A stretch of 64,000 bases of DNA from a virus (lineage: Duplodnaviria > Caudoviricetes). A program made the translations under genes and the position numbers. The notes under the pieces were generated by a model that worked only from the letters and a program-made list of their open reading frames with translations, was not told where the DNA came from and searched no databases. Positions 1 through 47,149 of this stretch are shown here, one piece after another; position 1 is the stretch's first letter, and each line of letters starts with the position of its first letter. The DNA is taken from positions 32,001 to 96,000 of IMG/VR virus record IMGVR_UViG_2574179762_000001, one strand, 5' to 3'.

Positions 1-309
1 GGCGTTTTCCGGCATGATGATCTTGTCACCAGCCATCGCCAGCAGGCTCGCCGCGCTGGCGGCCACACCCAGCACCTTCACGGTGATCTCAGCGCCGGTA
101 GCTCGCAGCGCGTTGTACATCGCCAAGGCGTCGAATACCGAGCCGCCCGGGCTGTTGATGTCCATGTCGATCTTTTTGACCGTGCCAAGCGCCTTCAGCT
201 CGTCGATGAACATTTTGGCCGTGACGCCCCACGCGCCGATCTCGTCAAACACCGAGATTTGAGCGGGCTGGCTGTCGGCCTTTGCGATGATCTTGTACCA
301 GTCTCTCAT
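1..309 (-). CDS. ClpP-like head maturation protease (5' part, runs off window)
   Basis: Manual translation MRDWYKIIAKADSQPAQISVFDEIGAWG...INSPGGSVFDALAMYNAL...VAASAASLLAMAGD. Confidence 0.9.
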   Translation of the reverse strand, partial: MRDWYKIIAKADSQPAQISVFDEIGAWGVTAKMFIDELKALGTVKKIDMDINSPGGSVFDALAMYNALRATGAEITVKVLGVAASAASLLAMAGDKIIMPENA

Positions 310-331
310 GGCAGTCCTTTTTGATGTTGCG

Positions 332-375: not shown

Positions 376-377
376 GG

Positions 378-575
378 TCAGTCCTCACCGCCCTTTTCAG
401 GCGCGACCTTGCGCCGCAACTTGTCCCGGATGAAGACATACAACTGCAGGCACGAGAGGATGAACGTCACCCACAGCAGCGCGGCAGGCAGTGCATTCGT
501 GATGATCTGAGTGACGCCGACGACGGCAGCTGCACCGGCTTTGCACAGGTCCGTGAGAAGTTCGGTCAGTGTCAT
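378..575 (-). CDS. Small membrane protein, holin-like
   Basis: 65 aa, hydrophobic core, basic C-terminus; start overlaps portal stop. Confidence 0.65.
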   Translation of the reverse strand: MTLTELLTDLCKAGAAAVVGVTQIITNALPAALLWVTFILSCLQLYVFIRDKLRRKVAPEKGGED

Positions 576-2065
576 TTTTTCGCCTTGTTGGAGTCGGGGT
601 ATTCGCTTGGTGCATTGCCGTCTGGTGCTCCATTGGCGGGCAGCGGGGCCGTTGGCAGGCCGAGCTCTTCTTCCCGCTTCTTATCGGCCGCACGCTCGTC
701 GTCCACCTGCTCGGGGTCGTCGCCGCGCTCGGAGATGACACTGGAGCGCGACCGGAAGCCCGCGGTGACTTCCATCTGCTTGCCCTGCACGTCTTGAACG
801 GGATGGATGTATTGCCAGCCGTGTGGGGCCCATTCGACTGCCTTGGCGTCCTCGGCAACGGACGTCGGCAACGCGCCGACGAGCACAGCCTGGTCAACCC
901 AAGCGTCGCGAACCCGCTGGCAGAACATGGGAATGAGCACATGCCACTGCCGCTGCTCGACAAAGCGGCGGAATTCCTGGATGACGACGCGCAGCGTCCG
1001 GTCAGACACGTTGATGATGTCGCCCGACAGCAGCTCATACGGCACGCCCTGCCCTGCCGCAGTTGCAAGGTGCTGCGTGCGCATATAGTCCGCGTAGGTC
1101 GTACCGGCCTCGGGCGGGTCGCTGAACACCGCCTTCTCGCCTGGCAGAAGCTCCTGCGAGATCCCGGGCTGCAAGGCCGCGACCGGCGTGCCGTCCGTCT
1201 CATAGTTGATCGCCTCGCCCGTGAGCGGGTCGATGCCATCAGGACTCGTGGGCACCTGCTTTTCGATGAACACCGTGAACAGGTTGGCGAGCTTCTGGCG
1301 TTCGAGTACTGCGTCGTCGAAGTCAGCAACGTTCCGCAGACGTGCCAGGACAGACGCGAACTCAGGAACACCGCGGAGCTGGCCGGGGCGCTTCGGCTCG
1401 AAAACGTGCAGGATCTCGTCGGCCGGCACGCGGATCAGTTGCGACTTGTCGATGTTCCCGGCAACAAAGTCGGTCGGGTGAGCTTTGTAGAGCCAGTAGG
1501 CGACGCGGGCGCCCAGGCGATCCAGTTCGATGCCCTGGCGGATCTTGTTGCCCGTCGGCAGACCCGGCCACGAGTCAGTGTCGAATTGCGGGCAGTAGTC
1601 CGACTCGATGACCTGAACCTGGAACGGCACCTCCATCGATCCTTTGCGGCGCCACCGCTTGCGCCCGAACACCTCGCCCGACTCGACCCACGAGCGTGTG
1701 ACCAGCGCCTCCTGCGCATAGAAGTTCAGCACACAGTCGGCATCGGACTGTGCCACCCACCTATCCCATAGGCCGGTAACCATCTCCTTGAGTGCGTTGT
1801 CCTTGATGCGCTTGGCGCGTGGCACGATGCCGGTGCCGACCAGGTTTGTCACCCACCGCTGACCGCCGGCGCTGGCTGTCCAGTCGTTGCGCGCGGCGTC
1901 GCGCGCTCGGTCGCGTACCTTCGGTGCCGAGGTGATTGCCCGATTGGGGCCAGAAGACGGCGGGCGCCACCCGCGCATGCGACGTCCGTTTCCGCCTGCG
2001 TCGTACTGAGCGACGATCGACGAGATAGCGCGGGAAACGCCGTTGCGGAATCGATCAAACATCAC
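572..2065 (-). CDS. Lambda-family portal protein
   Basis: H-F-E-x-x-RPGQLRGVP motif, AAGQGVPYELLSGD, W-x-YIHPVQDV. Confidence 0.95.
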   Translation of the reverse strand: MMFDRFRNGVSRAISSIVAQYDAGGNGRRMRGWRPPSSGPNRAITSAPKVRDRARDAARNDWTASAGGQRWVTNLVGTGIVPRAKRIKDNALKEMVTGLWDRWVAQSDADCVLNFYAQEALVTRSWVESGEVFGRKRWRRKGSMEVPFQVQVIESDYCPQFDTDSWPGLPTGNKIRQGIELDRLGARVAYWLYKAHPTDFVAGNIDKSQLIRVPADEILHVFEPKRPGQLRGVPEFASVLARLRNVADFDDAVLERQKLANLFTVFIEKQVPTSPDGIDPLTGEAINYETDGTPVAALQPGISQELLPGEKAVFSDPPEAGTTYADYMRTQHLATAAGQGVPYELLSGDIINVSDRTLRVVIQEFRRFVEQRQWHVLIPMFCQRVRDAWVDQAVLVGALPTSVAEDAKAVEWAPHGWQYIHPVQDVQGKQMEVTAGFRSRSSVISERGDDPEQVDDERAADKKREEELGLPTAPLPANGAPDGNAPSEYPDSNKAKK

Positions 2066-2274
2066 TTGTACCCCCGGCCGCCGTAGTACATCTGCGTACG
2101 TCGGCGCGGCGGCGTGGGCGTCTGCTCAACCAGCTGCCGCCGCATGTCGTCGCGTGCCTGGATAAGTTCGCCGATCGAGGCGTAGGTGATGCTCTGACTG
2201 CCGAGCGTCACCCGGCGCTCGCCTGCGGCGATGGCCTTGTTCAGCACGTCGATTTCGGATTGGGTGACCGGCAT
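2062..2274 (-). CDS. Head-tail joining protein (gpW-like)
   Basis: AIAAGERRVTLGSQSITYASIGEL; lies between TerL and portal. Confidence 0.85.
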   Translation of the reverse strand: MPVTQSEIDVLNKAIAAGERRVTLGSQSITYASIGELIQARDDMRRQLVEQTPTPPRRRTQMYYGGRGYK

Positions 2275-2300
2275 GGGGTGACCTTGGATGGATGCACGCC

Positions 2301-2344
2301 GATTCTCGGCGGCACACCATCCATGCGCCTGCGGTCAGATTTCG
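2301..2344 (-). promoter_or_regulatory. Prophage 1 late promoter motif, copy B
   Basis: Near-identical to 332-375. Confidence 0.65.
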
Positions 2345-2346
2345 TC

Positions 2347-4479
2347 TCACCCCATGTACGGCGAACGTGAGACGCGGCGACGCCGAGGCTGTTGCGCCGG
2401 GGCTGGAGCGACGGCCGGCGCGATAGGGGTGTTTTCCTGCATCTCCCGCCGATCTTCCCGGGTAATCAGATCGCTGTTCTCGGCCAACGGCCGTGCCCAC
2501 GGCGGGGCCTTGTCCCAATCCTTTAGCTTGTCGAGCGACAGGCGAAGGCAGCCGGCGCGGATGTAGCCGGCCAGGTCGAACGCCTCATTCCGCTTGCGCA
2601 CCTGCTTCCAAACCCCATTCGGCAGACGCACTTCCGACCGGAACATCTCATCGTAGAAGGCCGGCGACAGCCAGCTCGGCAGGTGGATGTATCCGGCGCC
2701 CGCTTTCTGCCGCTTCAAACCGGTGGAAACCGCGTCTTTCAGTAGGTTCGGGTTCAGCATGTAGAGCGGGATGTCCCCCTCTTTCCCCTTCTTCCCGCCC
2801 ACCAGCGACTCGCGGATGATGGGCGCAGTCTTGGTGGAGGCGCCCTTCACGAGCATGACTCGGGAGGCGTAACCCTGAATGCGGATGCGACGGTACCAAT
2901 CGTAGGCCTTGTCCGTAACGCCGTCCTCGCCGCCAGAGTCGACGATGGCGAGCTTGATCTGGAGTTCCTTGCCCTCGATGCTCGTGCGGTACGTCGCGCG
3001 CACGACCCGCTCTGTGAGCAGATCCCAGTCTTCGGCATAGGAAGCGGGGTCGATTGGCGCGAACTCCTCCCCCACGCCCGGCCTCGCGGACTCTGTGATG
3101 GAGTAGCGGTCGATCAGCCATTGCTCCATGTGAGGGCCGATAGCGTGCGCCTGCACCACGAACCGGGCATTTGCGCCACCCTGGACGTCGACCGACGCCA
3201 TCACGCAGCGTGCCTCGTCGGGGATGACATACCGCTGCAAGTCGTCTTCCTTGCGACTGGACGGGTCCGCGCTGTTTCGAGCGGCTTCGGCCAGCAGTCG
3301 GGACATATAAGGCATGCCCTGGTCGACGTTCACTGTGTTCTTCAGCGGTTCCTCGTCGCCGCTTAGCTCATACTGGCGCAGCGCCGTGAAGTAGCGCAGC
3401 AGCAGGGATTTCCAGGACTGGAACGCCGCAGCCACCCCTCCGACCCAGTAGCCCGCTGTTGGGGCGACGACCGCCTCGCCAACAGGATCGTCGTCGATAG
3501 TCAGGCGCACCCCTTCGGGTAGCCAAAGCCCGCAACGATTCAGCATGGGCTTCAGTTTCGGCGCGTGCATGGCACCGCAGTGCGAGCAAATGATGCGGTT
3601 GTACTGGTCTGCCAGCAGGTCCAGACTGTCTTCCCGCACCATCTGCCCGAGTTGGTCGAGCGGCGGCAGATGGAACAAACCCATGCCGGGCTCGGCCTCG
3701 AACCACTCACGGCAGTCGGGGCATTTCCAGTACCAGCGGCGGCGGTCGGAACCGTTGTAGAGGCCGAGAATGCCGTTCGTTGGAGGGGCCTCGTGCGGCG
3801 TGGCCGGCTGCCAGTTGGGGTCGGTGAGATCCCGGCCCGGGGACGACTCGGCCAGCGCCATGCCGCGGGACATGAACGTGGTCGTCCGCTTCAGCCCTAG
3901 CGGAAACGGCGCGCCTTCCCCACCGATGTCGTCCGGCATGCGGTCGAGATCGGTGAAGGCCACGTATCGGTAGGTTGAGCCCGACAAGTTTGAGACGGTC
4001 GGCCAGCCAATCTTCAGCCACATGCCGTGCTTGAACTGCTTGTCATGCACGGTGTCGTCCTGGCTCGCCCCGGACTTCATCTCGGCCAGGCTGGGCGAAT
4101 GCCGCAGCGCCCGGTCAATATCCGTCTTACTGAACTCGCGGGCCTTGTCCTGTGACATCTGCACGAACAGCATATCGCCCGGGTCGTTGACGACTGCATG
4201 CGCCATCCATCCCAGCAGCAGAGCCGCGGTCTTCCCGGTCCGCGCAGGTCCAACAAACGCCAGGGCTTCGTGACGCCGGCTGGCGAGCATGTTCATCGGC
4301 TCGACCATGTACGGCGTCTCGTCGGGCGACCAGGGTGTCGCCGGGCCGCCGGTCTGCTTGATGATCAGGTTCTGCGCCGCGCCCTCGCTCACCGACACCC
4401 GCTTCGGCGGCCGGAAGGCGGCATAGGGGCTGATGACATCGGCTAGCGCCACGTCGTAGTGTTGGAAGTCGTCAAGCAT
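2347..4479 (-). CDS. Terminase large subunit (GpA family)
   Basis: GPARTGKT Walker A, TPYMVEPM, CPDC Zn motif, VDVQ, NEAFDL; start reassigned to MLDDFQ. Confidence 0.95.
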   Translation of the reverse strand: MLDDFQHYDVALADVISPYAAFRPPKRVSVSEGAAQNLIIKQTGGPATPWSPDETPYMVEPMNMLASRRHEALAFVGPARTGKTAALLLGWMAHAVVNDPGDMLFVQMSQDKAREFSKTDIDRALRHSPSLAEMKSGASQDDTVHDKQFKHGMWLKIGWPTVSNLSGSTYRYVAFTDLDRMPDDIGGEGAPFPLGLKRTTTFMSRGMALAESSPGRDLTDPNWQPATPHEAPPTNGILGLYNGSDRRRWYWKCPDCREWFEAEPGMGLFHLPPLDQLGQMVREDSLDLLADQYNRIICSHCGAMHAPKLKPMLNRCGLWLPEGVRLTIDDDPVGEAVVAPTAGYWVGGVAAAFQSWKSLLLRYFTALRQYELSGDEEPLKNTVNVDQGMPYMSRLLAEAARNSADPSSRKEDDLQRYVIPDEARCVMASVDVQGGANARFVVQAHAIGPHMEQWLIDRYSITESARPGVGEEFAPIDPASYAEDWDLLTERVVRATYRTSIEGKELQIKLAIVDSGGEDGVTDKAYDWYRRIRIQGYASRVMLVKGASTKTAPIIRESLVGGKKGKEGDIPLYMLNPNLLKDAVSTGLKRQKAGAGYIHLPSWLSPAFYDEMFRSEVRLPNGVWKQVRKRNEAFDLAGYIRAGCLRLSLDKLKDWDKAPPWARPLAENSDLITREDRREMQENTPIAPAVAPAPAQQPRRRRVSRSPYMG

Positions 4480-4861
4480 CGTTGGACTCCATCCGCTCAA
4501 AGACGGCAGCCAGCTCGCCAAGCGCCTCATCAATCTGTCGCCCCACTTCCTCCGCGACTTCCGGCGCCAGAGCGAGGCGGCGCTCGAGGTGATCGGGCAG
4601 CGAGCGCAGAGTCTGGGCAATGGTGGCGTAAGCGGTCGCGGTCGCCTGAATGACCGCAGATCTCGCGACGTATTCGCCACTCTTGATCTTGAACTCCAGC
4701 TCGTTCAGGTCGGCCTTTGCCGATTCGTTACGCGCCCTGGCTTCCTCGAAGTCTTCGATAGCCTCCGGCTTCACGTATTCTTTCGGCTTCCGGCCAGCGC
4801 CAGGGCGGGCGCCCCCGTGGCCATTACCCTTGGCGGCACGGGGCTGCATCGTCTCGCTCAT
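4472..4861 (-). CDS. Terminase small subunit (DUF1441-like)
   Basis: HGGARPGAGRK, EEARARNESAKADL; directly upstream of TerL. Confidence 0.85.
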   Translation of the reverse strand: MSETMQPRAAKGNGHGGARPGAGRKPKEYVKPEAIEDFEEARARNESAKADLNELEFKIKSGEYVARSAVIQATATAYATIAQTLRSLPDHLERRLALAPEVAEEVGRQIDEALGELAAVFERMESNDA

Positions 4862-5112
4862 TAGCTCCCGCCCCCTGCGCCAGTGCCGTCAGCCGGGGAA
4901 ACGCTGGCCACAGGACCGGTCAGCCAGGCATGCAACTCGGTCGCGCGCACGAAGGCAAGGCCGCGTTCGCCCAGCTTTACCAGATTGACGGGAATGTCTC
5001 CCCGCTTGATCGACGCCTCCAGCAGGTCAACGGAAATGCCGACCACGGCTGCGGCTGCGGCGAGCCGGTAGAGGCCAGGTGGCGCGGACGGCGCGACTTG
5101 ATTAATTTCCAT
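4861..5112 (-). CDS. Small winged-HTH / excisionase-like protein
   Basis: LYRLAAAAAVVGISVDLLEASIKRGDIP; coupled to TerS. Confidence 0.6.
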   Translation of the reverse strand: MEINQVAPSAPPGLYRLAAAAAVVGISVDLLEASIKRGDIPVNLVKLGERGLAFVRATELHAWLTGPVASVSPADGTGAGGGS

Positions 5113-5118
5113 GCCCGC

Positions 5119-5162
5119 ATGGTGCGATTTTCAGTGCTGGGGCGTCCTGCGGCTGGATTTCG
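5119..5162 (-). promoter_or_regulatory. Prophage 1 late promoter motif, copy C (degenerate)
   Basis: cctgcggctggatttcg matches copies A/B; upstream of the terminase operon. Confidence 0.5.
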
Positions 5163-5502
5163 GGGGCTAGAGAGAATGTTTCGGGGCTGCGGCGCCCGTT
5201 TCACGGTTAAGCCATGGGAATTGCTGCCCGAATCAAGTTTGAAAACCCGAAAAACCCCCGCAGGCCGCGGCTCTTTGGCCCCGCACGTAGCATTTCCCCT
5301 ATAGGGACCCCAGCGATTGGCCGTGCCCTGGTTCAAAATAGCCGCCCGAAGAGCTAACAGGGGCCGATGTCTGAGGCGGGGCGACGGCACCCCAGATTTC
5401 TGGCGGCAGCAGACTGGCTACCTCAGTAGCGGTTGCGCGTGCTCGACACACGCTTGACCGAAGTGGGTGGTAACGACCGACGGCTTACAGCCGACCCTTC
5501 CA

Positions 5503-5671
5503 GACCGATTCTGTTGAAAAACTCGATCCGCCCCTTCAGAAGGCCAGACCTGTCAAAACTTGACCTCTCAGATCGGCCTGTATTGAATGATCGTTGATCG
5601 GTTGAGGGGGTTGGGTACCCCCGAAATCCCGTCGGAAACCGATTCTGTCGAGTTTCTCAACAGAATCGGTC
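5503..5671. mobile_element. 169-bp MITE-like element with 24-bp terminal inverted repeats
   Basis: gaccgattctgttgaaaaactcga (5503-5526) and tcgagtttctcaacagaatcggtc (5648-5671), 1 mismatch; no ORF. Confidence 0.7.
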
Positions 5672-5889
5672 ATTTCCGGTCATTCGAATTTCAACCATAA
5701 TGAACGCTACCGAACTGGCTTCCGCGGATGTCGCTCCAGACGCGCCCTGCGCAGACGTGAGGCAAGGTCCTGTCGCCCAGCAGTGAGGCGAGTTCCCAGT
5801 GATTGCCGCAAGAATCAAGTCTTTCATTCCGCGCGACAGCGGCAGCATCGGATTCCAAGGGCCGACTGGCGTTCCGTTATCTTCCATGC

Positions 5890-7089
5890 TCATGAGCATT
5901 TAAGGGTAACTAAGAAGCAAGCATTGTTCGCGTTAATATGCTGCCCACTCCCCACGAAATTATTCAGATTTGTGGGCTGAAAGAGATACGATCCAACCAG
6001 AGGAAATAAAAAAGGAGTTGTCGGATTGACGTGCACTGGAAAATTTCGAACTTGGCCATCTGGATCAGTTTTTTGGCAGGCCCAGTCAGCATAGCCACCA
6101 CCAGTAAAACATTCGACAGTCCTAATAGATGTCACAATTATCGATGAGCTGTTAGTGAATTTAGGAATATCAAGAGACCAAATGAAATTCGTTTCGCTTG
6201 AGCCCGTGGCACTTAGCAGTCGCGTACTGCCGGTATCAACTCGGTGGATGTGCACGCTGTCTTTAGACGTGCAATCCGCGTTGTCCACGACGCTTAAAGT
6301 GTAATCTACATCTGGCGGGGCGGGGGATGCAGTTACACCTGCAAGCACGGGTGGATTTTTCCCAAGAAAACCTGTGATATTTTGGAGGCCGGGAGCACTA
6401 ATCTCTGCCGAAACTGCACTTTGCTGATTATCGATAACCCAATATAGCGCAAACTGATCTTTTGGACAGACCCAAGCTTCTTTCGGCATGTAATAGCGTG
6501 CCTGCTCCCGCTCGCCTGCTGTAATATCGGCTAAAGTGACATACAAGTGAGCAGTCGCGGAGCAACTGTGTTTGCTATTATGCCCCGAGGCCATCGGTTC
6601 CGCGAGTATTCCTGCAGGAAGGTTCGATCGCAGCGTGAAAGGATCCCCGTGGGCTTCAACGAGACGCCCCTCCTTCATGCTTAACTGCCCTCGCTCGATG
6701 ATTGAAACTCTAATCGGGCGGGTAATGCCGAGTCGGGCCATTTGATGAATTCGCGCTGGGTGCAGCGTAAACGCGAATGTCAGGTGAAACTCCTCCGTCT
6801 CCCGATTCAAAATACCGGTGCAGGCGGGCAAATCGAAGTCCTCCCTGGTCGTTACCAGATCTTTAACCTCAACCACACTTCCTTGTGGCAGCGCGATCTG
6901 AAACGGGTCCCATTGCAAATCTACATCTGCCAAACGGATGGGGGTCAGGGGAGAATGTAAGGTAGGCTCAAACAGAATCGTTATTGTGCCGCAACCCTTT
7001 AGGTCAAGTTTGCCGCCACCGAGTCTCTGCCCAAGCTGAAGATGTGGGGTTGAACAAATAGAAAGTTTGCTAGTGAACGTTAGCGGCAT
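5890..7089 (-). CDS. Moron: 399-aa beta-rich hypothetical protein
   Basis: Long ORF in a low-GC island, GGAG RBS, no family recognised. Confidence 0.8.
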   Translation of the reverse strand: MPLTFTSKLSICSTPHLQLGQRLGGGKLDLKGCGTITILFEPTLHSPLTPIRLADVDLQWDPFQIALPQGSVVEVKDLVTTREDFDLPACTGILNRETEEFHLTFAFTLHPARIHQMARLGITRPIRVSIIERGQLSMKEGRLVEAHGDPFTLRSNLPAGILAEPMASGHNSKHSCSATAHLYVTLADITAGEREQARYYMPKEAWVCPKDQFALYWVIDNQQSAVSAEISAPGLQNITGFLGKNPPVLAGVTASPAPPDVDYTLSVVDNADCTSKDSVHIHRVDTGSTRLLSATGSSETNFIWSLDIPKFTNSSSIIVTSIRTVECFTGGGYADWACQKTDPDGQVRNFPVHVNPTTPFLFPLVGSYLFQPTNLNNFVGSGQHINANNACFLVTLKCS

Positions 7090-7943
7090 GGCTTTGTCTC
7101 CGTTTTCCCTGAAATCCGGACAGTTGTCTCATCGGTTTGCGCAGGCCCATCCCGGATGGAGCGTGCCCAGCGCCCCTCGCTGCGAGTATTGCATCGACAA
7201 ACGCGACCTCTTCGGTCGACTCTATACCTTCCTTCGCCGCCGCATAATTACCTCCTCCATGAACATTCAAAACCGTGCTAACGTGTACGCGTCGCGCAAA
7301 TCAAACCATGGGGAAATCACACCGCAACTTGCAGGCGGCGACATACGGCCCCTCTTCTTGAATTCCCCGTATTTGTTTAGGTCGTTAAGCTTCGGGCTAA
7401 AACTAGATTCCTGCACATTTAGCGCCGCATCCAAAATTTAGACTCAATATAGTTGCCACCTATACGTACTTCAAGGGCCAGTTCACACTCGTTTCTATCT
7501 CGAATTGACGTTGGTGCGATAGTTGGCGCCAATGAACCAGAAATTTGTGCACGGTAGTCGATAAATTTTCATTGGATTTTCAAAAATGGAACACTCTGAA
7601 AATTACTTAATTCTGTAATAAATATAGAAGAGCGGCGCAGATTTCCAATCTGTCAACACTAGCCGCGGGGAGGCGACCGACGTATGTTTTACAGCGGCCT
7701 AGCAGCAGGTCGCTGAAATACTCTGCCGGAGCGGTCTCCAGCTATGTATAGATGGTTGCGCTATTCTTGTTGCTTCCGTCGCGACGGCAATCCGCGGAGT
7801 TTGCTGCTCGGCGGCAGTCGGCCCCGTTCCTGCGCAACGCCGGCACCCAGACAGCCCTTTCCTTCCCGTCCCGCAATTTGGCGAAGATCCATAAAGGCCG
7901 CTGACTGGTGGGCTGGAGAATTGCGTCAGGTAGGGCGCAGGAC

Positions 7944-8414
7944 TTAGGAGAGTGGCAGAGTCAGTTGAGCGGCGGGGCTGGCTTGGTCGGGTCGCTCGGC
8001 TTGGGCTGTGCTGCGCGGTATTCGCCCTCGGGCCCGCAGGATCATTGGGATCAGCCCCTTGCTCTCGACATGGGTGCGGAGTTGCTGTACCCGGCGCTCG
8101 GTGATACCGAACTCCGCGGCGATCTCGCGCGTACCCGCACCATGTGCCAGGCGTTCCGCGATCAGGCGGTCGCGCCGGTCCATCGCTTCCAGGTGTCCGC
8201 CGGGAATCCACAGTGTCTCGCTGCCGTATGCGGCAACCAAGCGGCGGAAGGCGGCATGCCCGATCAGCCGGGCGACCGGGTGACTCTTGTCGGCCGTGGC
8301 AGGGATATATACGTTGGCGCCACCGAACCAAGCCACCAGCAGTGAGGTGGCCGTGTAGCCAATCTCAGCACTCACATCCTCCAGCACTCCGTTTGCCTTG
8401 ATTCTGTCCATCAT
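7944..8414 (-). CDS. Mor/C-family transcription activator
   Basis: FGGANVYIP...YGSETLWIP...RDRLI...HTH (EIAAEFGITERRVQQL). Confidence 0.8.
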   Translation of the reverse strand: MMDRIKANGVLEDVSAEIGYTATSLLVAWFGGANVYIPATADKSHPVARLIGHAAFRRLVAAYGSETLWIPGGHLEAMDRRDRLIAERLAHGAGTREIAAEFGITERRVQQLRTHVESKGLIPMILRARGRIPRSTAQAERPDQASPAAQLTLPLS

Positions 8415-8422
8415 GTCCCCGC

Positions 8423-8839
8423 TCAGTCAAAGACAACCCCGTAGGTGGAAGCGGCGTGAGCCTCGACCTGCCTTATGTATTCCGCCATGGCGCCGACAGT
8501 GATCTCGCCGCGGGCGATTGATGGCTCGACCAGCACTACTCGGCCGTCCTGCAGGCGATGTTCCTCCGGTGGCAGGAACCGCTCCTTCATGTGCTTGTGC
8601 CACGTCGCCTTGCTGAACCGGCAACCAACGACCACCGCCTGCTCGGCGATCGGCTCGATCACCGCCACCCAGTAGAAGCGGACCTGCTCTTCCGTGCGGT
8701 CAGCACCGTCGTCCACCAGGATCACCCTGAGGGGGCGGCCGTCGCTAGCCATCGCCGGCGCCGCCGCCTTGACGGTGGCTATCACCGCCTGCCAGTCCGC
8801 CCGGCCCCGGAGGGTGAACTCCCGGTAGACCTCTGCCAC
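8423..8839 (-). CDS. NinB-like recombination protein
   Basis: RTEEQVRFYW...WHKHMKERFL...MAEYIRQVEAHAA. Confidence 0.75.
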   Translation of the reverse strand: MAEVYREFTLRGRADWQAVIATVKAAAPAMASDGRPLRVILVDDGADRTEEQVRFYWVAVIEPIAEQAVVVGCRFSKATWHKHMKERFLPPEEHRLQDGRVVLVEPSIARGEITVGAMAEYIRQVEAHAASTYGVVFD

Positions 8840-8840
8840 G

Positions 8841-9056
8841 TCAGAACGACATACCGACGGCGAAATCGGTGCGCTTCATGTTGTCGACCTTGCGCGCGGT
8901 CTCGGCGCCCAGCACGATGAACTCCTGGCCGGGATGTTCGCGCGCCAGCCGTTCCGCCTCCGTCACGGCGGACTCATAGCCCGGGTGGTGGTACTTTGGC
9001 GGGGTCATCCCGGTGGGCGACCAGACGATCCAGAATTTTTCGGCGCTGTCAGGCAT
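8841..9056 (-). CDS. Phage hypothetical protein
   Basis: KFWIVWSPTG-x-x-PP-x-x-x-H-x-x-YESAVTEAERLA, a common phage motif. Confidence 0.75.
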   Translation of the reverse strand: MPDSAEKFWIVWSPTGMTPPKYHHPGYESAVTEAERLAREHPGQEFIVLGAETARKVDNMKRTDFAVGMSF

Positions 9057-9231
9057 TCTTGCTTCCTTCCTGTTTGGCACGGGCCTCAGTCAGCGTGCGC
9101 GTCTTTGCCACGGCGCACGCTATCTGCTGGCAGCGCATCCGGCTGATTCCGTAAGCGGCGGCTGCGACCGCCAAGGATTTGCCATCAATGACCAGCATGT
9201 GGTGGATGGCGCGGTTTCGGTCTGTTTTCAT
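9049..9231 (-). CDS. Small HTH protein
   Basis: RNRAI...AAAYGISRMRCQQI; overlapping start/stop coupling. Confidence 0.6.
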   Translation of the reverse strand: MKTDRNRAIHHMLVIDGKSLAVAAAAYGISRMRCQQIACAVAKTRTLTEARAKQEGSKNA

Positions 9232-9346
9232 CTCTGCTGCAGGTAGACATCGATTGGACCGAGCTCGAGTACGGCGCGACCGCGAGGCGCGCGCCAGTAC
9301 CCCAATCCCCAGCGGAGCGGGTTGAGCCCGCGGATCTTGATGCGCA

Positions 9347-9873
9347 TCACGCCGCCTCCCGGTCTTCGTCCAGGCCGGCGGCCGGCATGCGGCGCGTGCC
9401 CTCCTTCTTCAGCCGCACGACGTTGCCGGAACGGATCCGCCGGTCTGCCTCGAAGATCGCCGCGGCGTGCTGTTGCTTCGTGACGGTGGCCAGCAGACCT
9501 CGTACAGGGACATCGCCTCGTTGAGCCGCGGCAGGTCGCCGACACCGAGCCGGAGCGCGCGGAGCGCCTTGCACCGCTCGCCAATGTTGATCATGGCGTT
9601 CTGCGCGGCATAAATCACGGCCAAGCCCACCTCTCGGTTGCCGGCCTTCTCACACAGCACCTGAGAGCAGTTCAAGGCGTTGACGATGGTGTGCCAGTCG
9701 TCCTTCGTGGCCTCCCCGCGCGCCAGCGCCTGCACGGACCAGTGCGCGGCGCCGAGGATGGATTCGCGGTCAGACTGTTGCAGGGGCTTGTCGCTGTCGA
9801 ACAGCAGCGCGGCGATGTTCGTGCGCACCTGGCGCGGCCGGTAGGCCTTGTCCCGCTTCTTCTTGGTGGCCAT
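9347..9873 (-). pseudogene. Phage protein with an apparent 1-bp deletion near 9498
   Basis: ORF 9409-9873 continues naturally in the frame of 9347-9574 (LYE|GLLATVTKQQHAAAI). Confidence 0.65.
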
Positions 9874-9874
9874 C

Positions 9875-10312
9875 TCAGAAAACCTCCCTCACCCATCCGC
9901 CGCCCTTCTTCATGGGCAGCTTCGTTGCCTTCACCATGCGGAAGTACGGCAACACCTCCGCGCACAACTTGATCTTCATTTGCCCGTGGGCCGTCACGAA
10001 TCCGCCCTTGGTTTCGTGGATCTCCAGTCGCGTGTCGGCTGGGAGCACCAGGAAGTCCACCTCGTAGAACGTGTTGTCAGCCAGGCGCACACGCATCGGG
10101 TGGAACTTCCAGTCGAGGACAAGCCCTTGGCGCTTCTCTTCGTCCAGCAGGATGGAATAGGCGCGCTCGGTCTTGTTCATCTGGTCCTTGGGCAGGCGGC
10201 CCAGCGCATGGAAGCGCGCCATCGGGTCGGCCTTCTTGGCCGGCGCCGGCTTGGGCTGGCGTGCCTGGAGCGCGGCCAGCTGCTCTGCGGTCCATCGGAG
10301 CATCTTGCTCAT
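9875..10312 (-). CDS. DUF1064-like PD-(D/E)xK endonuclease
   Basis: MNKTERAY...RLADNTFYEVDF...IHETKG. Confidence 0.75.
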   Translation of the reverse strand: MSKMLRWTAEQLAALQARQPKPAPAKKADPMARFHALGRLPKDQMNKTERAYSILLDEEKRQGLVLDWKFHPMRVRLADNTFYEVDFLVLPADTRLEIHETKGGFVTAHGQMKIKLCAEVLPYFRMVKATKLPMKKGGGWVREVF

Positions 10313-11070
10313 GCCGCGGCTCCCATGAACATGCTGGTCTGGATTGGATTGGCGCGGCGATCCCAGAACACCAGAGACTGGCGCGACTCGATCCGCTCGC
10401 GCATGACCTGAGCTCGCGATTCCTTGCTGGCCGGCGTGTAGGCGCCCTTCCACTTCGAGTCGATGCCCACGTTCTGGGCGATGTTCGTGCTGTCGGCGCT
10501 GGCAAAGGGAAAACGGCTAAAGACTTCCGGGTCCAGCATGCGCAGGCCGTGCAGCTTGCAGACCGGCCGGCCGTGCTTGTCGCACACCACATCCATCGCC
10601 TCGGACATGCGCGTCCACCATGCCGCCGTGCCGACCTGCGCGTAATCGCCAGAACTGCCAAGGCACACGCGCGGCCATGCCATCGCCAGTCGTTCCAGGC
10701 GCTCCAGGCTTTCGTGCAGGTGCCAGACCGGGGCGCCGACCCACGGGGCACGCTCGCGCCACGGCCACTCAGCCAGCAGGGCATCGTTCGCTTCCTCGTC
10801 GCCGTCGATCACGTCCGGGATCACGGCGAAGTCAAAAGAGGGGTACCGATGAAGCTCGGCCACCCATTCATAGAACGGGTTCCAGTCGGTAATCGGCTTG
10901 CCAGAGCGCCAGGCGGAGAAGGCGCCGTTGTCTACGGCGAAGGACTGCGCCACCTCGAGGACGATGCCGAGTTGGTCAGGGCGGTGGAACGACACGAAGG
11001 CGTGCCCGGCAAAGACCGCCTTGGCTGCGGCCGTCGTCGGGGTAATGGGAGTTCCGTGGTAATGGATCAC
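10309..11070 (-). CDS. TGT/DpdA-like TIM-barrel protein (putative base-exchange enzyme)
   Basis: DNGAFS, PDVIDGD, PVWH, LGSSG, KLHGL, SADST motifs resemble guanine transglycosylases. Confidence 0.65.
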   Translation of the reverse strand: MIHYHGTPITPTTAAAKAVFAGHAFVSFHRPDQLGIVLEVAQSFAVDNGAFSAWRSGKPITDWNPFYEWVAELHRYPSFDFAVIPDVIDGDEEANDALLAEWPWRERAPWVGAPVWHLHESLERLERLAMAWPRVCLGSSGDYAQVGTAAWWTRMSEAMDVVCDKHGRPVCKLHGLRMLDPEVFSRFPFASADSTNIAQNVGIDSKWKGAYTPASKESRAQVMRERIESRQSLVFWDRRANPIQTSMFMGAAA

Positions 11071-11456
11071 ACCGACACTCCCACGAGGAGGGCGACGTCG
11101 TCGTCGCTGGTCTTCGGGCCGATCTGTGCCACTACCGAGACGCCAGACTCCAGGATGCGGCGATGCACGGCACTGATGTAGGCCAGTCGCTTCTGGCTGT
11201 CAGCCTGGGCGCCCGGTTCGCCGCGGCGCGTTTCGATGTCGACGCCGCGATGGTGGGCACGCAACGTCTGCTGGCCGCCCAGCGCTTGGTGCAGCCCGTC
11301 GGCGATGGCTTCGTGGTAGGCGCTGCGGTGCTGCGCGCATGCCGCGATGATGTGCTCGGCGTGGATCATCGTGCTGCTGGCGATCTCCAGCGCGTAGACG
11401 ATCATCGCGCCGTTGGCTGGACACTTGCACACGAACTGGTGACGATAGATATTCAT
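11067..11456 (-). CDS. QueF-like small T-fold protein
   Basis: F-x-CKCP-x-NG...Y...EHI...YHEAIAD...HRGVDIETRR; coupled to the TGT-like gene. Confidence 0.6.
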   Translation of the reverse strand: MNIYRHQFVCKCPANGAMIVYALEIASSTMIHAEHIIAACAQHRSAYHEAIADGLHQALGGQQTLRAHHRGVDIETRRGEPGAQADSQKRLAYISAVHRRILESGVSVVAQIGPKTSDDDVALLVGVSV

Positions 11457-11692
11457 ACCCCTCTCCCCTTGATCCACTCGCGGCGCTGGGCCGCCTGTTC
11501 CTCCGATACAGCCGCGTGCTTACCGCAGGCCTGCACCTCGGCGCCGATCCAGCGCAGCGTCAGCGCTTCTTTCAGGCACCGGCCCATCCCAACCCGGGCA
11601 TGGGCCCGGTCGCTGGCCTCCAAGTGCGCCTCTCCGGCAGCGGTGCGAGGCTTCACAGTGAAGTGCCGGCACGTAATGCAGTGGTCGCTCAT
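11453..11692 (-). CDS. Cys-rich hypothetical protein
   Basis: CxxC...C...C pattern; ATGA overlaps on both sides. Confidence 0.65.
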   Translation of the reverse strand: MSDHCITCRHFTVKPRTAAGEAHLEASDRAHARVGMGRCLKEALTLRWIGAEVQACGKHAAVSEEQAAQRREWIKGRGV

Positions 11693-12773
11693 GCCGCCTC
11701 CTGCTCTGATGGATAGAAGAAGGCGAGGATCCGGGCATGCATGGCCTCGTCGCGCTCTGTCTCCCGCAGGAGCTGCTGGCGCCACGGGCCTTCCCCTGCG
11801 CGCTTGAATACACGAACCTTGAACGACATGAAAAGCTCGCCCTCCTCTACCTTCCAGGCGACGCTCAGTTCCGCGGCTTTCGCCTTGATCCCCTCGATGC
11901 TGTTCCACCACTCGGCGGCGGTCTGCGTCGGCGTAGCTGGGTCAGCCGGCTTGCCGGCCACAGCCGCCGCGGCTTTGGCGGCCTGCTCGCGCGCCGAGCG
12001 AATAATCCCCAGGATGTAGCCGGCGTTCGGCCTCTCGTTGGGCTTCTTCATGCCGAACACCTCGACCGCTTCTGCGATCTCCTGGTCAGACACGGCCAGG
12101 CGGACCATCTCGGTGACGTCGGCGTGATTGCTGGTCACCGCCATGCCGTAGGTCTTGCGGAGCAGGATGGCCAACTGCACGGGCCGCGGGTTTTCCTCGC
12201 CGGTCGTCTGGTTCAGCGGGTGTGATGTGGCGTGGGCTGCTGCCCCCGCGTTGCCGCTGAGGTTCACATCACCACTAACCTTTGAAGTAGTAGGTGATGG
12301 TGATGGTGAAGGGCATTGCTCAGGCACAGCTCCGGGCAGTCCATCGGGCAGTCCATCGGGCACTGCTTCGGGTTGTGCTTCGAGCATGCTTGGAGCATCG
12401 CTTGCGGCATGCCCGGGGGACTTCCTGCCCCACCTCTTTTCTGCTGCTAGTGTGGCTTTTGCTACGGCACTTTCTTTCCGCGTCTGGCTTGCCCGAAGCT
12501 CTTCATCGGCGCGCTTCTGGTGCAGCAATCCGTTCTCTTCCTTGAAGAATCGGATCACAGCAGGCTTCGCCCTCTTCCATGCGGCAGCCGTAAGGCGCGT
12601 GATCTGCGCGCCAGCGTCGCGTCGTCGTGGGGCGGCGGCCCATTGCGCCAGTAGTCCATGAGCAGCAGCAGGTATGCCCCATGCTGCTCAGTGGTCAGGC
12701 GCGTGGTGTCCGCCAGGTAGTCGCCGATGAACAGCGGCATCCAGACGTCCGCCTTGTCTTTGGCCTTGCTCAC
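11689..12773 (-). pseudogene. YdaU/DUF1376 replication initiator, frameshifted near 12606-12612
   Basis: N-terminal [13 protein letters not shown]...HGAYLLLLM; deleting one CG from ggcgcgcag restores [23 protein letters not shown]. Confidence 0.8.
12311..12414. repeat. 12-bp-period iterons (putative ori of prophage 1)
   Basis: cgggcagtccat x2, cgggcactgctt, cgggttgtgctt, cgagcatgctt inside the initiator gene. Confidence 0.6.
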
Positions 12774-13192
12774 TTCGATACCTCCAGGGGCGGCAGGTAC
12801 GCCGCCAGCAAGGTTTGCGTCTCACGGGTCAACTCGGCCTCATCAAAGCCATACACGGCAGCAAAGCGCTTCACGCCCAGACCGTGCACGCCGGTGTTGC
12901 CGCGGTGGTGCTCCGGGCAAAGCGGGATGGCGTCTCGGTGCTCGGCGCGCTGGCCCATGCCGGTACCCTTGCGCGGGTGATGGATCTCCGCCGGCGTGGC
13001 GCCCAGGCCCAGCCGACGGCAGCAGGCGCAGCCGAGCGCGGCGACGTGATCAAGGTAGATGCGCTCCGCCTTCTTCGCGCGCGTCTTCCCCTTCTTCTTG
13101 AAGGGGCTGGGAACCAAGCCTGCGGTCTGTCTCAGCCAAATAGTTGAATGCAGTGGCGTTCTTCGACGAAGTTGGGTGCGACGCTTTAGCAT
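12770..13192 (-). CDS. Ref/DUF968 HNH-like nuclease
   Basis: GCACC...AEIHH...AIPLCPEHH. Confidence 0.8.
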
Positions 13193-13311
13193 GACGCAAC
13201 CCAATCCGTCGTCGACAGATTTTGCGCGGGCTTTACCCCCACCGAAGTACGATTGAAAGTGGAAGCCTTGTATGCCAGCATCGCTAGCTCAACAATTTCG
13301 AGAGGACAACA

Positions 13312-13500
13312 ATGGCACGATTCCGCATTGAAACGGTCACCGATCCCGCAACCGGGCTTATCTATACCGAGATGTATTACCCCGAAAATGCAGCTACCCC
13401 TTCGGCACGCACGAAGCCCATCTATCCTTCGCATGAAGCTGCCGAAGCAGATGCAGTGAAGATGTTCCAGGACTGGGCGGAGGGTCTGGATAAGCAGTGA
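13312..13500 (+). CDS. 62-aa hypothetical protein, opposite to the surrounding operon
   Basis: GAGGA RBS, lower GC island. Confidence 0.7.
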   Translation: MARFRIETVTDPATGLIYTEMYYPENAATPSARTKPIYPSHEAAEADAVKMFQDWAEGLDKQ

Positions 13501-13547
13501 TCTAGAAGTCTGCGTACTACTAGTACCAGTATGTTGGAGGCCAGGAC

Positions 13548-13739
13548 TCATGCGGCCTCCAGCCGTTTTCGCTCGCGGGTCGACCAGCTTCCCATCTCAG
13601 GCACGTTCGCCTGAACCAGTGCGGCCGCCATAGGCGGGCTGACGCTATTGCCGCACATGCGCACCTGGGCATGCTTCGGCAGGCGCTTGCCGCCGATGAT
13701 CTCTGGTGCGATGTCGAGCAGGAGTTGGTCGCGGATCAT
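13548..13739 (-). pseudogene. Internally deleted DNA cytosine methyltransferase
   Basis: N-terminal MIRDQLLLDIAPEII fused to the C-terminal motif X region AQVRMCGNSVSPPMAAAL. Confidence 0.75.
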
Positions 13740-13752
13740 GCTGTCGCCCTCG

Positions 13753-14088
13753 TTACTGCGCTGCGGCCATAGCCGCCGCAGCACTCGAGGGTTCGTCAGC
13801 CAAGCTCAGCAGTTCCTGCCAGGCGCCCGTCGCTTCGCACTTCCGCTCGCCAGAAACCGTCAGGCGGCCAGCATCAAGCAGACCGCGCGCCACTCGGCAG
13901 ACGGATCCCATAGGGAGATTGGTTCGGTAGAAGAGATCCCATCGGGTCAGTTTGACGGCCGGCCCGGTGAAGTGGGACATCACCATGTCGTTCTGGACGA
14001 CTCGCTTTGCGTTCGTGATTGCATCGTGCGAGGCCGCTTGCGTTTCAGACATGCGGCGGTCCGAGGGGGTGCTGTAAATTTGTTCCAT
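13753..14088 (-). CDS. wHTH hypothetical protein
   Basis: TRWDL...LPMGSVCRVARGLLDAGRL; GGAG RBS. Confidence 0.7.
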   Translation of the reverse strand: MEQIYSTPSDRRMSETQAASHDAITNAKRVVQNDMVMSHFTGPAVKLTRWDLFYRTNLPMGSVCRVARGLLDAGRLTVSGERKCEATGAWQELLSLADEPSSAAAAMAAAQ

Positions 14089-14151
14089 GTTTCTCCCCGG
14101 CTTTCCGGTAAATGACTTGGGTACGCGGCGCCTTGTATCGGCGCGCTGTTA

Positions 14152-14544
14152 TCAGGCAGCCTTCATTGCCTCGATTTGGGATTCCAACTCGCGGATGCGG
14201 CGCTGCTCGTTTGTCTCGCGGCTGGTCACGAAACCGCAGACGCTGTCTTCGTACTGGCGGATGGCCCAGTTGCCGCAGAGAGCCTGGAACTTGATGCGGA
14301 AGTCGAACGGCAGGTACTTCTTCCCGCTCAGGATGTTGGAGAGGTGCGACTTGGGCATGCCCAGGATTGCTGCCGCATCCGAGATCGAATAGCGAACGCG
14401 GCGTTTCGCCCAGCAGAGGACTGTCGCGTCTGCCTCGTGGCGCAGGCGTGCGATCAGAAAGTCCGCAACCATCTCCGGCTCTCCGACGACTTCGAAAAAC
14501 GGCATCTCCCGTTGCATCTGTTCGCTCCCTAACAGTTGTTCCAC
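14152..14544 (-). CDS. CII-like regulator
   Basis: HTH (AAAILGMPKSHLSNILSG), CGN; directly downstream of cro. Confidence 0.7.
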   Translation of the reverse strand: MEQLLGSEQMQREMPFFEVVGEPEMVADFLIARLRHEADATVLCWAKRRVRYSISDAAAILGMPKSHLSNILSGKKYLPFDFRIKFQALCGNWAIRQYEDSVCGFVTSRETNEQRRIRELESQIEAMKAA

Positions 14545-14626
14545 TTGTTCCGCCTAGCGTTCCACGTACCAAGCGGCGTCAAATGAAGGCGTCACTTCGG
14601 ACGCCTCTATGAACCGCGAACTGCGC

Positions 14627-14875
14627 TTACTTCCCGTTGCTGCACCTTTTGCTCTTGCAGCAGTATTCGCGCACGAAGGCCCAATCGACTTTGTCGTTGA
14701 GTTCTTCACAGGCGACGGCACCTTCGGTGAGCCGCTCGATTACTGGGCACTGCTCGGCCGACACCGGCCGCTTGCCAGAGATCCACTGGTAGACGAGTCC
14801 TTGGGAGACCCCAAGTCGCTTTGCGAAGGCGGCCTGGCTGGTCTTCGTGGTTTCGAGATATTCGGCGAGCTTCAT
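14627..14875 (-). CDS. cro: Cro/YdaS-like repressor
   Basis: SQAAFAKRLGVSQGLVYQW...IERLTEGAV; divergent from cI. Confidence 0.9.
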   Translation of the reverse strand: MKLAEYLETTKTSQAAFAKRLGVSQGLVYQWISGKRPVSAEQCPVIERLTEGAVACEELNDKVDWAFVREYCCKSKRCSNGK

Positions 14876-14884
14876 GAACCAAAT

Positions 14885-14948
14885 ACTAGCATAGCTAGTT
14901 AAATCGTCAATAGCTATGCTTGTTGTGCAAACAAATAGCATTGCTACA
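14885..14948. promoter_or_regulatory. OR operators x3 (TAGC-N3-GCTA)
   Basis: 14885-14899, 14909-14923, 14934-14948 between cro and cI. Confidence 0.8.
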
Positions 14949-14957
14949 CTCGCGCGC

Positions 14958-15962
14958 ATGTCGCGACCAAGCAAAACTCTCGAAGCCTGGCAAGCCGAAG
15001 ACGCCGCGCGTCTGAAGGCGCTCTATGGCGAGCGCAAGGGCAAGATGAGCCAGGAGGAATTCGGCAGCCGGTTCGAAATCGGCAGCCAGGGCATGGTCTG
15101 GCAGTATCTGAACGCCCGCCGTCCTCTGAATATCAAGGCGGCCACCGGCTTTGCGCGTGGCCTAGGTGTCGAAGTCGATGCGTTCAGCCTGCGGCTGGCT
15201 GAGGAGATCCGCAGGGCCTCTAGTACCGTCACCGACACGGTTCCGACCGTCCCTTCTGGCGCCGAGGCTGGCGGGAAGCCATCGGATCGATTGCGCATCG
15301 TCATGGCGGAGCAGCATCTCGACATTCCCGGGGTGGCGCAGCTCTTGGGCGTTGAATCGGCCGTCGTGCGTTCATGGCTTGAGCAGGATGCGCCAAAACT
15401 GCATCTGCACCACGCAGTCAAGCTGCAAGAGGCCTATGGCTACAGCCCTGCGTGGCTGATCAATGGCAAAGGGGAAGCGCGGCTATCGAACCTCCAGGAG
15501 GCCGAGCTGGACGAGCCCAGCCTGCCCGAGGACACATTCCCAATTCCACAGAGTGTTTTCAAACGGATTCCGGTTAGGGGCATGGCGCAGTTGGGAGACA
15601 ACGGACACTTTGTCGATATTGAATATCCAGTCGGGCACGGGGATGGATACCTCTATTTCCCCACTGCCGACCCTGATGCGTACGGATTGCGCTGCAATGG
15701 TGAGTCCATGCGACCGCGGGTCAAGCACGGAGAGTTTGTAGTTGTCGAACCCAATCGCGCCGTAACCAATGGCGACGAGGTCCTGGTAAAGGCCCAAGAC
15801 GGCCGTGTCATGGTGAAGGAACTGGCCTACGTCCGCGACGGCGTCGTGCACCTGTCGTCCGTGAACGAGCGCCACGGCATGCTGCGGATTCCTCAGGAAC
15901 AGATCGTCCGCCTGCAGTACGTAGCCGGCATCGTGAAGTCCTCGGTCTGGCGGCCGGATTGA
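14958..15962 (+). CDS. cI: CI repressor with two HTH domains and an S24 autopeptidase
   Basis: HTH1 (SQEEFGSRFEIGSQGMVWQYL), HTH2 (VAQLLGVESAVVRSW...SPAWLINGKG), GESMRP and VMVKEL. Confidence 0.9.
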   Translation: MSRPSKTLEAWQAEDAARLKALYGERKGKMSQEEFGSRFEIGSQGMVWQYLNARRPLNIKAATGFARGLGVEVDAFSLRLAEEIRRASSTVTDTVPTVPSGAEAGGKPSDRLRIVMAEQHLDIPGVAQLLGVESAVVRSWLEQDAPKLHLHHAVKLQEAYGYSPAWLINGKGEARLSNLQEAELDEPSLPEDTFPIPQSVFKRIPVRGMAQLGDNGHFVDIEYPVGHGDGYLYFPTADPDAYGLRCNGESMRPRVKHGEFVVVEPNRAVTNGDEVLVKAQDGRVMVKELAYVRDGVVHLSSVNERHGMLRIPQEQIVRLQYVAGIVKSSVWRPD

Positions 15963-16037
15963 TCGCCGATACGTGTTGGCGAAGACGAAAGCTTATGCGC
16001 CACTCACCCACAGCTCACACAAAAACGCGACCTAAGA

Positions 16038-47103: not shown

Positions 47104-47149
47104 CGCCAAGACCTGTGCATTTGGTATGCAGCAAGTCTGGCAAAAAGCG

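Follow-up and report, generated by a model that had tools for sequence, protein, structure and literature searches.

We describe a pair of phage genes, one for a DpdA-like guanine transglycosylase and one for a small T-fold protein, within a stretch of 64,000 nucleotides (nt) taken from IMG/VR record IMGVR_UViG_2574179762_000001 (positions 32,001 to 96,000; the whole stretch is called the window here). The pair probably puts a host-supplied 7-deazaguanine into phage DNA, evading bacterial defences. That it forms a host-fed module for deazaguanine modification of nucleic acid we consider likely; the more specific reading, in which two phage genes form a host-fed module that modifies DNA with 7-deazaguanine and whose T-fold member acts on the nitrile of preQ0, receives a probability of about 0.5. 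A preliminary description made from the sequence had called the two genes translationally coupled, and both open reading frames (ORFs) are indeed found on the minus strand with a 4-nt GTGA overlap, as are all the motifs that it quoted for the two proteins (CP, HE and HRGV in one; DNGAFS, PDVI, PVWH, HGL and DST in the other). The features of the pair are as follows (lengths in amino acids, aa).

11067..11456, minus strand: small T-fold gene, 129 aa, ATG start, from the ORF listing and the sequence
10309..11070, minus strand: DpdA-like guanine transglycosylase gene, 253 aa, GTG start, product begins MIHYHGTPITP
11067..11070, minus strand: GTGA overlap of 4 nt, the TGA stop of the T-fold gene lying within the GTG start of the DpdA-like gene; translational coupling
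11458..11468, minus strand: purine-rich Shine-Dalgarno-like sequence GGGGAGAGGGG, just upstream of the T-fold ATG, by direct reading of the sequence

The T-fold protein begins MNIYRH (N-terminus MNIYRHQFVCKCPANG), and its ATG overlaps the TGA of an upstream 79-aa ORF (ATGA). A longer ORF for the small gene, from a GTG at 11477, was considered and rejected: the homologues all start MNIY, and the Shine-Dalgarno-like sequence precedes the ATG.

The DpdA-like barrel and its T-fold partner

At the level of sequence profiles, the decisive homology link for the 253-aa protein is its match to the DpdA of phage 9g (hhalign probability 95.3%, E 2.4e-8, 159 columns), an alignment that pairs DNGAFSAW with LDSGAFSAY, KLHGL with KVHGF and ASADST with YSCDSS. 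The 9g enzyme alone placed dPreQ0 in plasmid DNA (PMC6884629). Five transglycosylase-like motifs are seen in the window protein (D47NGAFS, P85DVI, P114VWH, H174GL and D193ST), and D47, D86, H174 and D193 are invariant in 32/32 relatives. D47 and D193 align with the Asp residues of 9g LDSGAF and CDSS, H174-G175 aligns with the 9g HG, and D86 lies two to three columns off the Asp of 9g VLDG. Three Asp and a His-Gly are described for bacterial DpdA and TGTs; in the S. Montevideo DpdA, D95 and D256 are the general acid/base and nucleophile pair, and D130 and H181-G182 serve base recognition (PMC10164549). A comparison with the single bacterial DpdA sequence of the host sets ADST on FDST at E 0.28, too weak to use alone.

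The AlphaFold2 (AF2) model of the protein, built from 32 sequences, is an eight-stranded beta/alpha barrel with a mean predicted local distance difference test (pLDDT) score of 88.4 and a predicted template-modelling (TM) score of 0.86. VIA-align gave Z 15.2 against Cap10 (root-mean-square deviation, rmsd, 4.4 A over 233), 15.0 against ArcTGT (4.2 A over 232) and 14.7 against TGT (3.5 A over 219), and Foldseek placed the Zymomonas TGT first (E 2.5e-4). The protein also matches phrog_887, annotated as queuine tRNA-ribosyltransferase (E 9.3e-77), and its homologues carry the same label in RefSeq. Profile match and predicted structure together support the assignment of the 253-aa protein as a TGT-type barrel homologous to 9g DpdA, which bears out the TGT/DpdA-like TIM barrel of the preliminary description; the fold check it had proposed, by structure prediction and profile comparison, returned a TGT-type barrel for one gene and a T-fold for the other. 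The tRNA TGTs carry a C-terminal Zn-binding subdomain. The window protein has no Cys that is invariant among the 32 relatives, and its chain ends about 60 aa past D193, so this subdomain appears to be absent.

This is a large family. Of 8000 candidates scored, 7510 fell at E<=1e-3, IMG/VR has at least 565 stretches with it, and tblastn found 105 matching records of cultured phages, most of them temperate and infecting Salmonella, Escherichia, Klebsiella or Vibrio. Among the 30 of these records that were listed, none belongs to the Queuovirinae. The phage DpdA1 systems (9g, CAjan) combine DpdA with FolE, QueD, QueE and either QueC or Gat-QueC, whereas the window module has no preQ0-synthesis genes. 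Like 9g, it has a homologous transglycosylase encoded in an early replication gene block, and presumably also exchanges G for preQ0 after replication; unlike 9g, its barrel has 253 aa rather than 317, its partner is an 80-aa T-fold rather than Gat-QueC, and the phage is temperate. A closer counterpart is the 'singleton DpdA' of gamma-Proteobacteria phages, a DpdA homologue that stands alone, for which a host-supplied precursor was proposed and the function left open (Hutinet et al. 2019, PMC6884629). The family studied here appears to match these singletons as that paper describes them, and the tblastn matches come from the same kind of phage (Salmonella, Shigella, Klebsiella, Vibrio); the window gene differs in having a dedicated T-fold partner, which the passages of PMC6884629 examined do not mention.

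Residues 1-80 of this partner form a core like that of QueF and QueF-L, and residues from about 85 to 129 form a C-terminal extension specific to the subfamily. The AF2 model (43 sequences) has a mean pLDDT of 89.2, rising to about 95 over residues 1-80, and the bb-aa-bb topology of a T-fold, so the T-fold-like protein of the preliminary description is found, with QueF-L and QueF as its nearest relatives. Foldseek returned the archaeosine synthase QueF-L structures 5JYX and 5K0P at the top (E 4.7e-4). VIA-align scored 5jyx_M at Z 12.9 (rmsd 1.6 A over 83 residues) and 5k0p_C at 12.8, followed by GTP cyclohydrolase I (GCH-I) at 11.5, in an alignment that covers the T-fold part alone, QueF at 9.4 and dihydroneopterin aldolases at about 9. 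Among named ESM Atlas clusters, those of QueF come nearest (features 0.88, structure TM 0.82-0.83); in one archaeal cluster there, QueF is combined with Nuc_deoxyrib_tr in 10% of members.

At the level of families the small protein matches phrog_37496, of unknown function (E 5.2e-26, residues 1-78), and at E<=1 it has no match in Pfam or NCBIfam, GCH-I (PF01227) and PTPS included. A HMMER profile of the small family found spurious matches only among PDB sequences (a designed repeat protein, a His-tag and others). The family comprises 529 representative clusters at 50% identity (E<=1e-3), most of them about 80 aa long. The extension of about 45 residues is confined to subfamily P0002-P0010, and another subfamily has a different one; in the window it occupies 11067-11210 on the minus strand and is modelled as strand-helix-strand at pLDDT of about 86-88.

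The motifs of the small protein are C12-P13, H48-E49 and H69-R70-G71-V72. Counted over 114 representatives, Y4, E49 and H69 are conserved in every one, N2, F8 and C12 in 113 each, Y21 in 112, E34 in 111, R78 in 107, H48 in 105 (Gln in the other nine) and D53 in 101. By hhalign the family was compared with the QueF of the host (E 0.045) and with the unimodular QueF of phage Dp-1, Gp1 (E 0.0025), and both comparisons, though of low probability, give one alignment, with C12 on the thioimide-forming Cys (the CP being common), E34 on the Glu with which the QueF motif begins, and H48-E49 on the (F)HE. The NADPH motif of QueF, E(S/L)K(S/A)hK(L/Y)(Y/F/W) (PMC10516641), is not kept beyond E34, where VESKSLKLY of Dp-1 Gp1 aligns with AEHIIAACA. 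By these alignments the small protein keeps the substrate-anchoring Glu and the nucleophilic Cys of QueF, and neither the cofactor site nor the known acid/base residue.

In QueF-L, Cys21 forms the thioimide and a conserved Asp is present (PMC5485725). The aligned ranges (model 1..83, 5JYX chain 10..104) would put C12 on this Cys21, and the Cys offsets would then match, if the first strand is ungapped; QueF-L (5JYX, 5K0P) is also the closest structure and likewise a short unimodular T-fold with no NADPH motif. Against these likenesses, we detect no sequence similarity to QueF-L, the QueF-based alignment shows no counterpart of the conserved Asp, and the window core is about 20 residues shorter; the substrate of QueF-L is preQ0-tRNA, in which it turns preQ0 into the amidine with NH4+. 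What the protein has in common with bacterial and phage QueF is its T-fold, the CP...(F/Y)HE motifs and the Glu that opens the QueF motif; it differs from them in lacking the NADPH-binding motif, the QPD Asp and a PF14489 match. The phage QueFs tested to date are true reductases that accompany full pathways (PMC10516641). Since both the NADPH motif and the catalytic Asp are missing, the small protein is neither a QueF nor a proven QueF-L, and the 80-aa T-fold is a third, minimal branch beside them. The label 'QueF-like' of the preliminary description thus holds for the fold and the Cys and His-Glu motifs, and fails for the NADPH motif and the catalytic Asp.

Linkage of the pair and supply of the base

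A scan of IMG/VR with the small family gave 148 relatives, from which 80 loci were kept, and in all 80 a DpdA-like gene follows the small gene on the same strand, at 40-87% identity to the window copy. The frames abut or overlap in 56 of them and lie 226-857 nt apart in the other 24 (starts extrapolated). Genes inserted between the pair include a Vut_1 (YhhQ-type) transporter (L019, L020), small helix-turn-helix proteins and a nucleoside 2-deoxyribosyltransferase-family gene of 122-133 aa (PF05014; L014:2679-3047, L041:4243-4644, L044:4243-4626; above the cut-off in both of the inserts scanned), which may be a link to base salvage. Three cultured phages carry the small gene (Pseudomonas Epa33, Rhizobium RHph_X2_30 and Microcystis Mae-JY30), and each of them has an adjoining DpdA-like gene, which in Mae-JY30 lies upstream. 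In the reciprocal direction, the small gene occurs within 1.5 kb in 23 of the 80 closest DpdA-like loci (11 upstream, 12 downstream). Linkage in 80 of 80 loci one way and in 23 of 80 the other makes the small gene a dedicated but dispensable accessory to DpdA.

No other gene family recurs around the pair, the best reaching 16 of 81 loci. Four-nucleotide overlaps link all the operon genes from 12558 to 9875, so coupling alone is not specific to the pair; adjacency conserved across genomes is specific evidence for it. The two genes co-diverge (r 0.59 over 46 unique pairs, Mantel 0/999), as is expected of any linked genes. On a quick tree of 128 DpdA-like proteins, in which those with the partner were over-sampled by design, presence of the partner changes at least 18 times, at least six of these changes being forced by well-supported branches, against 39.3 with shuffled labels.

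Two side observations concern these loci. A large C-5 cytosine DNA methyltransferase gene lies at or near the pair in Pseudomonas phage Epa33 (L001) and in eight IMG/VR loci, suggesting an anti-restriction gene neighbourhood. An exception among bacterial genomes is a contig of Cupriavidus sp. UYMMa02A (L172), where a 128-aa copy of the small gene (3001-3387) has no adjoining DpdA-like gene, and poorly coding sequence about 1 kb downstream includes a QueD-like ORF on the opposite strand (4880-4374); this may be a decayed element.

Precursor genes were surveyed in 34 long viral contigs that carry the pair, 26 of them at least 90% complete. QueC and PTPS/QueD were each found in 0/34, and Vut_1 in one; in RHph_X2_30 a Vut_1 gene lies two genes upstream of the pair. 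Among the representative clusters of the small family, one (P0311) has Vut_1 fused to the T-fold domain and three have a fused QueD/PTPS-like domain, scoring 21.2, 21.7 and 23.3 bits against a Pfam cut-off of 22.4. FolE, QueD, QueC, a bimodular QueF, Tgt and YhhQ are all encoded in the host genome outside the window, as is a QueE-like radical-SAM protein whose gene lies beside that for QueD; none of its QueC, PTPS/QueD, GCH-I, QueF, TGT or QueE-type matches lies within the window. Because the phages have no queC or queD and the host pathway lies outside the window, supply of the base by the host or by salvage is the simplest reading. The preliminary description had likewise noted no folE or queCDE in the window and looked to the host as the source; the complete host pathway and the phage survey agree with it.

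Mechanism and alternative readings

In the mechanism that we propose, the DpdA-like barrel would swap G in phage DNA for a 7-deazaguanine during lytic replication, most likely preQ0 from the host pool (preQ0 and preQ1 are not distinguishable from sequence). By analogy with DpdA and TGT, the nucleophile would be D193 (of ADST) and the general acid/base D47 (of DNGAF), and the base would be recognized by D86 together with H174-G175. The T-fold partner would probably form a ring and bind the deazaguanine via the invariant E49, and C12 would attack the preQ0 nitrile to give a thioimide. QueF-L being the closest structure, this thioimide could be resolved without NADPH, by ammonia to the amidine of dG+ or by water to the amide of dADG, and the T-fold would be an optional add-on that alters the 7-substituent of phage DNA. 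Defences that recognize dPreQ0-DNA exist (bioRxiv 10.1101/2025.10.29.685425), and under them selection would have cause to favour add-ons by which the side chain is altered. The number of invariant polar residues in the T-fold argues for catalysis, and position 15 (Asn in 75 and Asp in 30 of the 114 representatives) might replace the missing QPD Asp; catalysis on the nitrile is a tentative proposal that falls a little short of even odds.

A number of observations weigh against this reading. For the barrel, generic TIM barrels (8e-4) come close behind TGT in Foldseek; neither of the curated models tested, Pfam PF01702 (TGT) and NCBIfam NF041059 (DpdA), matches the protein at E<=1, PF01702 is matched by 0/32 relatives even at E<=10, and a PF01702 search of the genome that holds the window left the DpdA-like locus out of its matches. 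For the T-fold, Pfam QueF (PF14489) is missed at E<=1, the hhalign probabilities are low (1-12%), and the QPD Asp that is the general acid/base of QueF and QueF-L aligns with the hydrophobic I19, a position that is I in 93, V in 20 and M in one of the 114 representatives. Since the other 57 of the 80 nearest DpdA-like loci lack the small gene within 1.5 kb, the partner is not required by DpdA. The associations with a transporter, QueD-like domains and a deoxyribosyltransferase point to handling of free base rather than to chemistry on DNA, and QueF-L does not turn over free preQ0, its thioimide adduct being stable and unreactive (PMC5485725). Finally, a mycobacteriophage with a singleton DpdA is unmodified where its host has no pathway (PMC6884629), and in the parts of the literature examined DNA modification by the singleton DpdAs of temperate phages of Gram-negative hosts is not reported.

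The missing Asp, the free-base associations and the inert adduct of QueF-L with free preQ0 keep in play a reading in which the T-fold converts nothing. It would instead capture free preQ0 or another deazaguanine, by a covalent bond or otherwise, shield it from host QueF and Tgt and hand it to DpdA, or would be a non-catalytic subunit that tunes DpdA, so that plain preQ0 is installed. The fusion of the T-fold to a YhhQ-type transporter (P0311) and the Vut_1 and Nuc_deoxyrib_tr genes inserted within the pair would fit such a role, as would near-identical DpdA-like proteins with and without the partner (e.g. L165, L168), for which DpdA specificity need not change. On the other side, about a dozen near-invariant polar residues in 80 aa (including Y4, C12, Y21, E34, H48, E49, D53, H69 and R78) suggest an active site more than a binding pocket, transglycosylation could follow only once any covalent adduct had been reversed, and the transporter fusion is a single cluster that could be gene-calling read-through. 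We regard capture of the base as a possible reading, though a doubtful one.

Less probable still, and in our view quite unlikely, is that the pair modifies RNA (host or phage tRNA) or another substrate in place of phage DNA and so reprograms translation. The founders of the superfamily, TGT and ArcTGT, act on tRNA, as does QueF-L (PMC5485725, PMC6884629), and the RefSeq name of the homologues points the same way; but the homology that can be detected is to 9g DpdA, which acts on DNA (PMC6884629), the Zn subdomain of the tRNA TGTs appears to be lacking, the gene is placed among replication and recombination genes, and related loci (eight of them, and that of phage Epa33) adjoin DNA methylases. 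The rank of GCH-I as second-best structural neighbour, the three clusters fused to PTPS/QueD-like domains at or near the Pfam cut-off, and the precedent of DpdL, a QueD paralogue proposed to be a 7-carboxy-7-deazaguanine (CDG) decarboxylase (PMC10516641), might suggest that the T-fold is a miniature FolE or a QueD/DpdL-type enzyme that makes or trims a deazaguanine or pterin precursor. This is very unlikely: the protein matches neither the GCH-I nor the PTPS family of Pfam, its 80-aa core is far shorter than FolE, a full-length Zn-site enzyme, its motifs align with the Cys and His-Glu of QueF, and the related viral contigs have no queC with which to finish the pathway. That two genes of unrelated function are neighbours by chance is hardly tenable, generic though 4-nt overlaps are in this operon, as it is contradicted by the linkage across 80 of 80 loci with DpdA-like identities down to 40%, by the occurrence of both gene orders and by the lack of any other conserved neighbour.

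Phage DpdA, host-dependent singletons, QueF and QueF-L are already known. For the 80-aa T-fold strictly linked to DpdA, its residue pattern and its possible tie to Dpd+ hosts, we found no description in the literature searched; the supplementary tables of PMC6884629, PMC10516641 or the 2024 review PMC10966956 may list the small protein. The small family has no Pfam or NCBIfam name. Modification of phage DNA by 7-deazaguanines is an active field, embracing anti-restriction, anti-CRISPR and glycosylase-based defence, and the 'singleton' DpdAs of temperate phages were left without an assigned function in 2019 (PMC6884629); the present finding supplies a specific, strictly linked partner. Should the T-fold convert the nitrile of preQ0, no member of the QueF clade would be smaller, its reaction or substrate would be new, and it would offer a further way to make dG+, dADG or a novel base in DNA. 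Should it capture the base instead, it would be a new phage means of taking over a host metabolite.

Host Dpd island and prophage context

The bacterial genome that holds the window also has a Dpd island, outside the window and 2.8 Mb from the prophage (G000:C8:308000-328800; loci L176, L177). On one strand it encodes DpdF, G, H, I (below the cut-off), J and D, and on the other QueD, QueC, a DpdB-family gene, DpdA (NF041059, E about 1e-163) and DpdB. NCBIfam gives no match for a 340-aa ORF next to DpdB, the scanned stretch of the island showed neither DpdE nor DpdK, and no DUF6884 (DpdC-type) match lies inside the island, such matches falling on contigs C4 and C1. The bacterial Dpd system (DpdA/B/C with DpdD-K) exchanges guanine in DNA for preQ0, as the phage pair would, and then optionally converts the nitrile (DpdC, giving dADG). 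It differs in that bacterial DpdA has 431 aa and requires the ATPase DpdB, which the phage pair lacks, and in that DpdC is a DUF6884 protein (PMC12235509), unlike a T-fold.

Bacterial DpdA is rare in the genomes sampled: at class level it was found in one of 301 (that of the window), at family level in 3 of 200, again counting that of the window, and in 0/16 of the same genus. A scan with one peptide pattern found the small gene in four other representative genomes (two Cupriavidus, Massilia and Caballeronia), and all of these except Caballeronia have bacterial DpdA above the curated cut-off, far from the small gene or on another contig. Against 2 of 199 family genomes, 3 of 4 gives a Fisher p of 2.9e-5, a value that rests on n=4 and ignores kinship; the class background is 0/300. 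Among 400 order-level genomes only that of the window carries the small gene, and the family sample has it in 2 of 201, the window's genome and one partial copy. With so few genomes, this unexpected co-occurrence is a lead rather than a result. It makes coexistence of the phage with Dpd directly testable, and would be consistent with a more speculative and rather unlikely reading, in which the pair is a phage counter-measure to Dpd+ hosts. It would write the host-type 'self' mark (dPreQ0, or dADG if the T-fold is a cofactor-free nitrile converter unrelated to DpdC) on phage DNA as it replicates, draw on the enlarged preQ0 supply of Dpd islands, and allow growth and lysogeny in Dpd+ bacteria.

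Around the pair, the following features were identified.

12773..12555: N-terminus of a DUF1376-type primosomal protein, by a PHROG-type phage family match
near the pair: HNH-like protein, by phage family match
10312..9875: Holliday-junction-resolvase-like protein, by phage family match
8839..8423: NinB, by phage family match
8414..7944: late transcriptional activator, by phage family match
14916..15962: CI-type repressor, in divergent orientation

These phage-family neighbours and the divergent repressor place the pair in the early lytic operon of a lambdoid-type prophage, with the replication genes on one side and those for NinB, the resolvase and the late activator on the other. The 79-aa Cys-rich ORF that precedes it (11453-11692, minus strand; MSDHCITCRHF...) is ATGA-coupled on both sides, upstream to the replication gene and downstream to the T-fold gene; neither Pfam for the ORF nor PHROG for its longer frame gives a match, and its place beside the pair is not conserved elsewhere. 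A 399-aa ORF (5890-7089, minus strand), also without a PHROG match, lies between the terminase region and the late activator.

The window contains two prophage-like regions (1-16000, to which the pair belongs, and 30000-61000); both are read on the minus strand, and a separate large terminase is encoded in each. The second region also has a tail fibre gene.

2347-4680, minus strand: large terminase, first region
38810-42454, minus strand: tape measure, second region
45028-47238, minus strand: head protease/major head, second region
47680-49302, minus strand: portal, second region
49812-51812, minus strand: large terminase, second region
58782-60035, minus strand: replication initiator, second region

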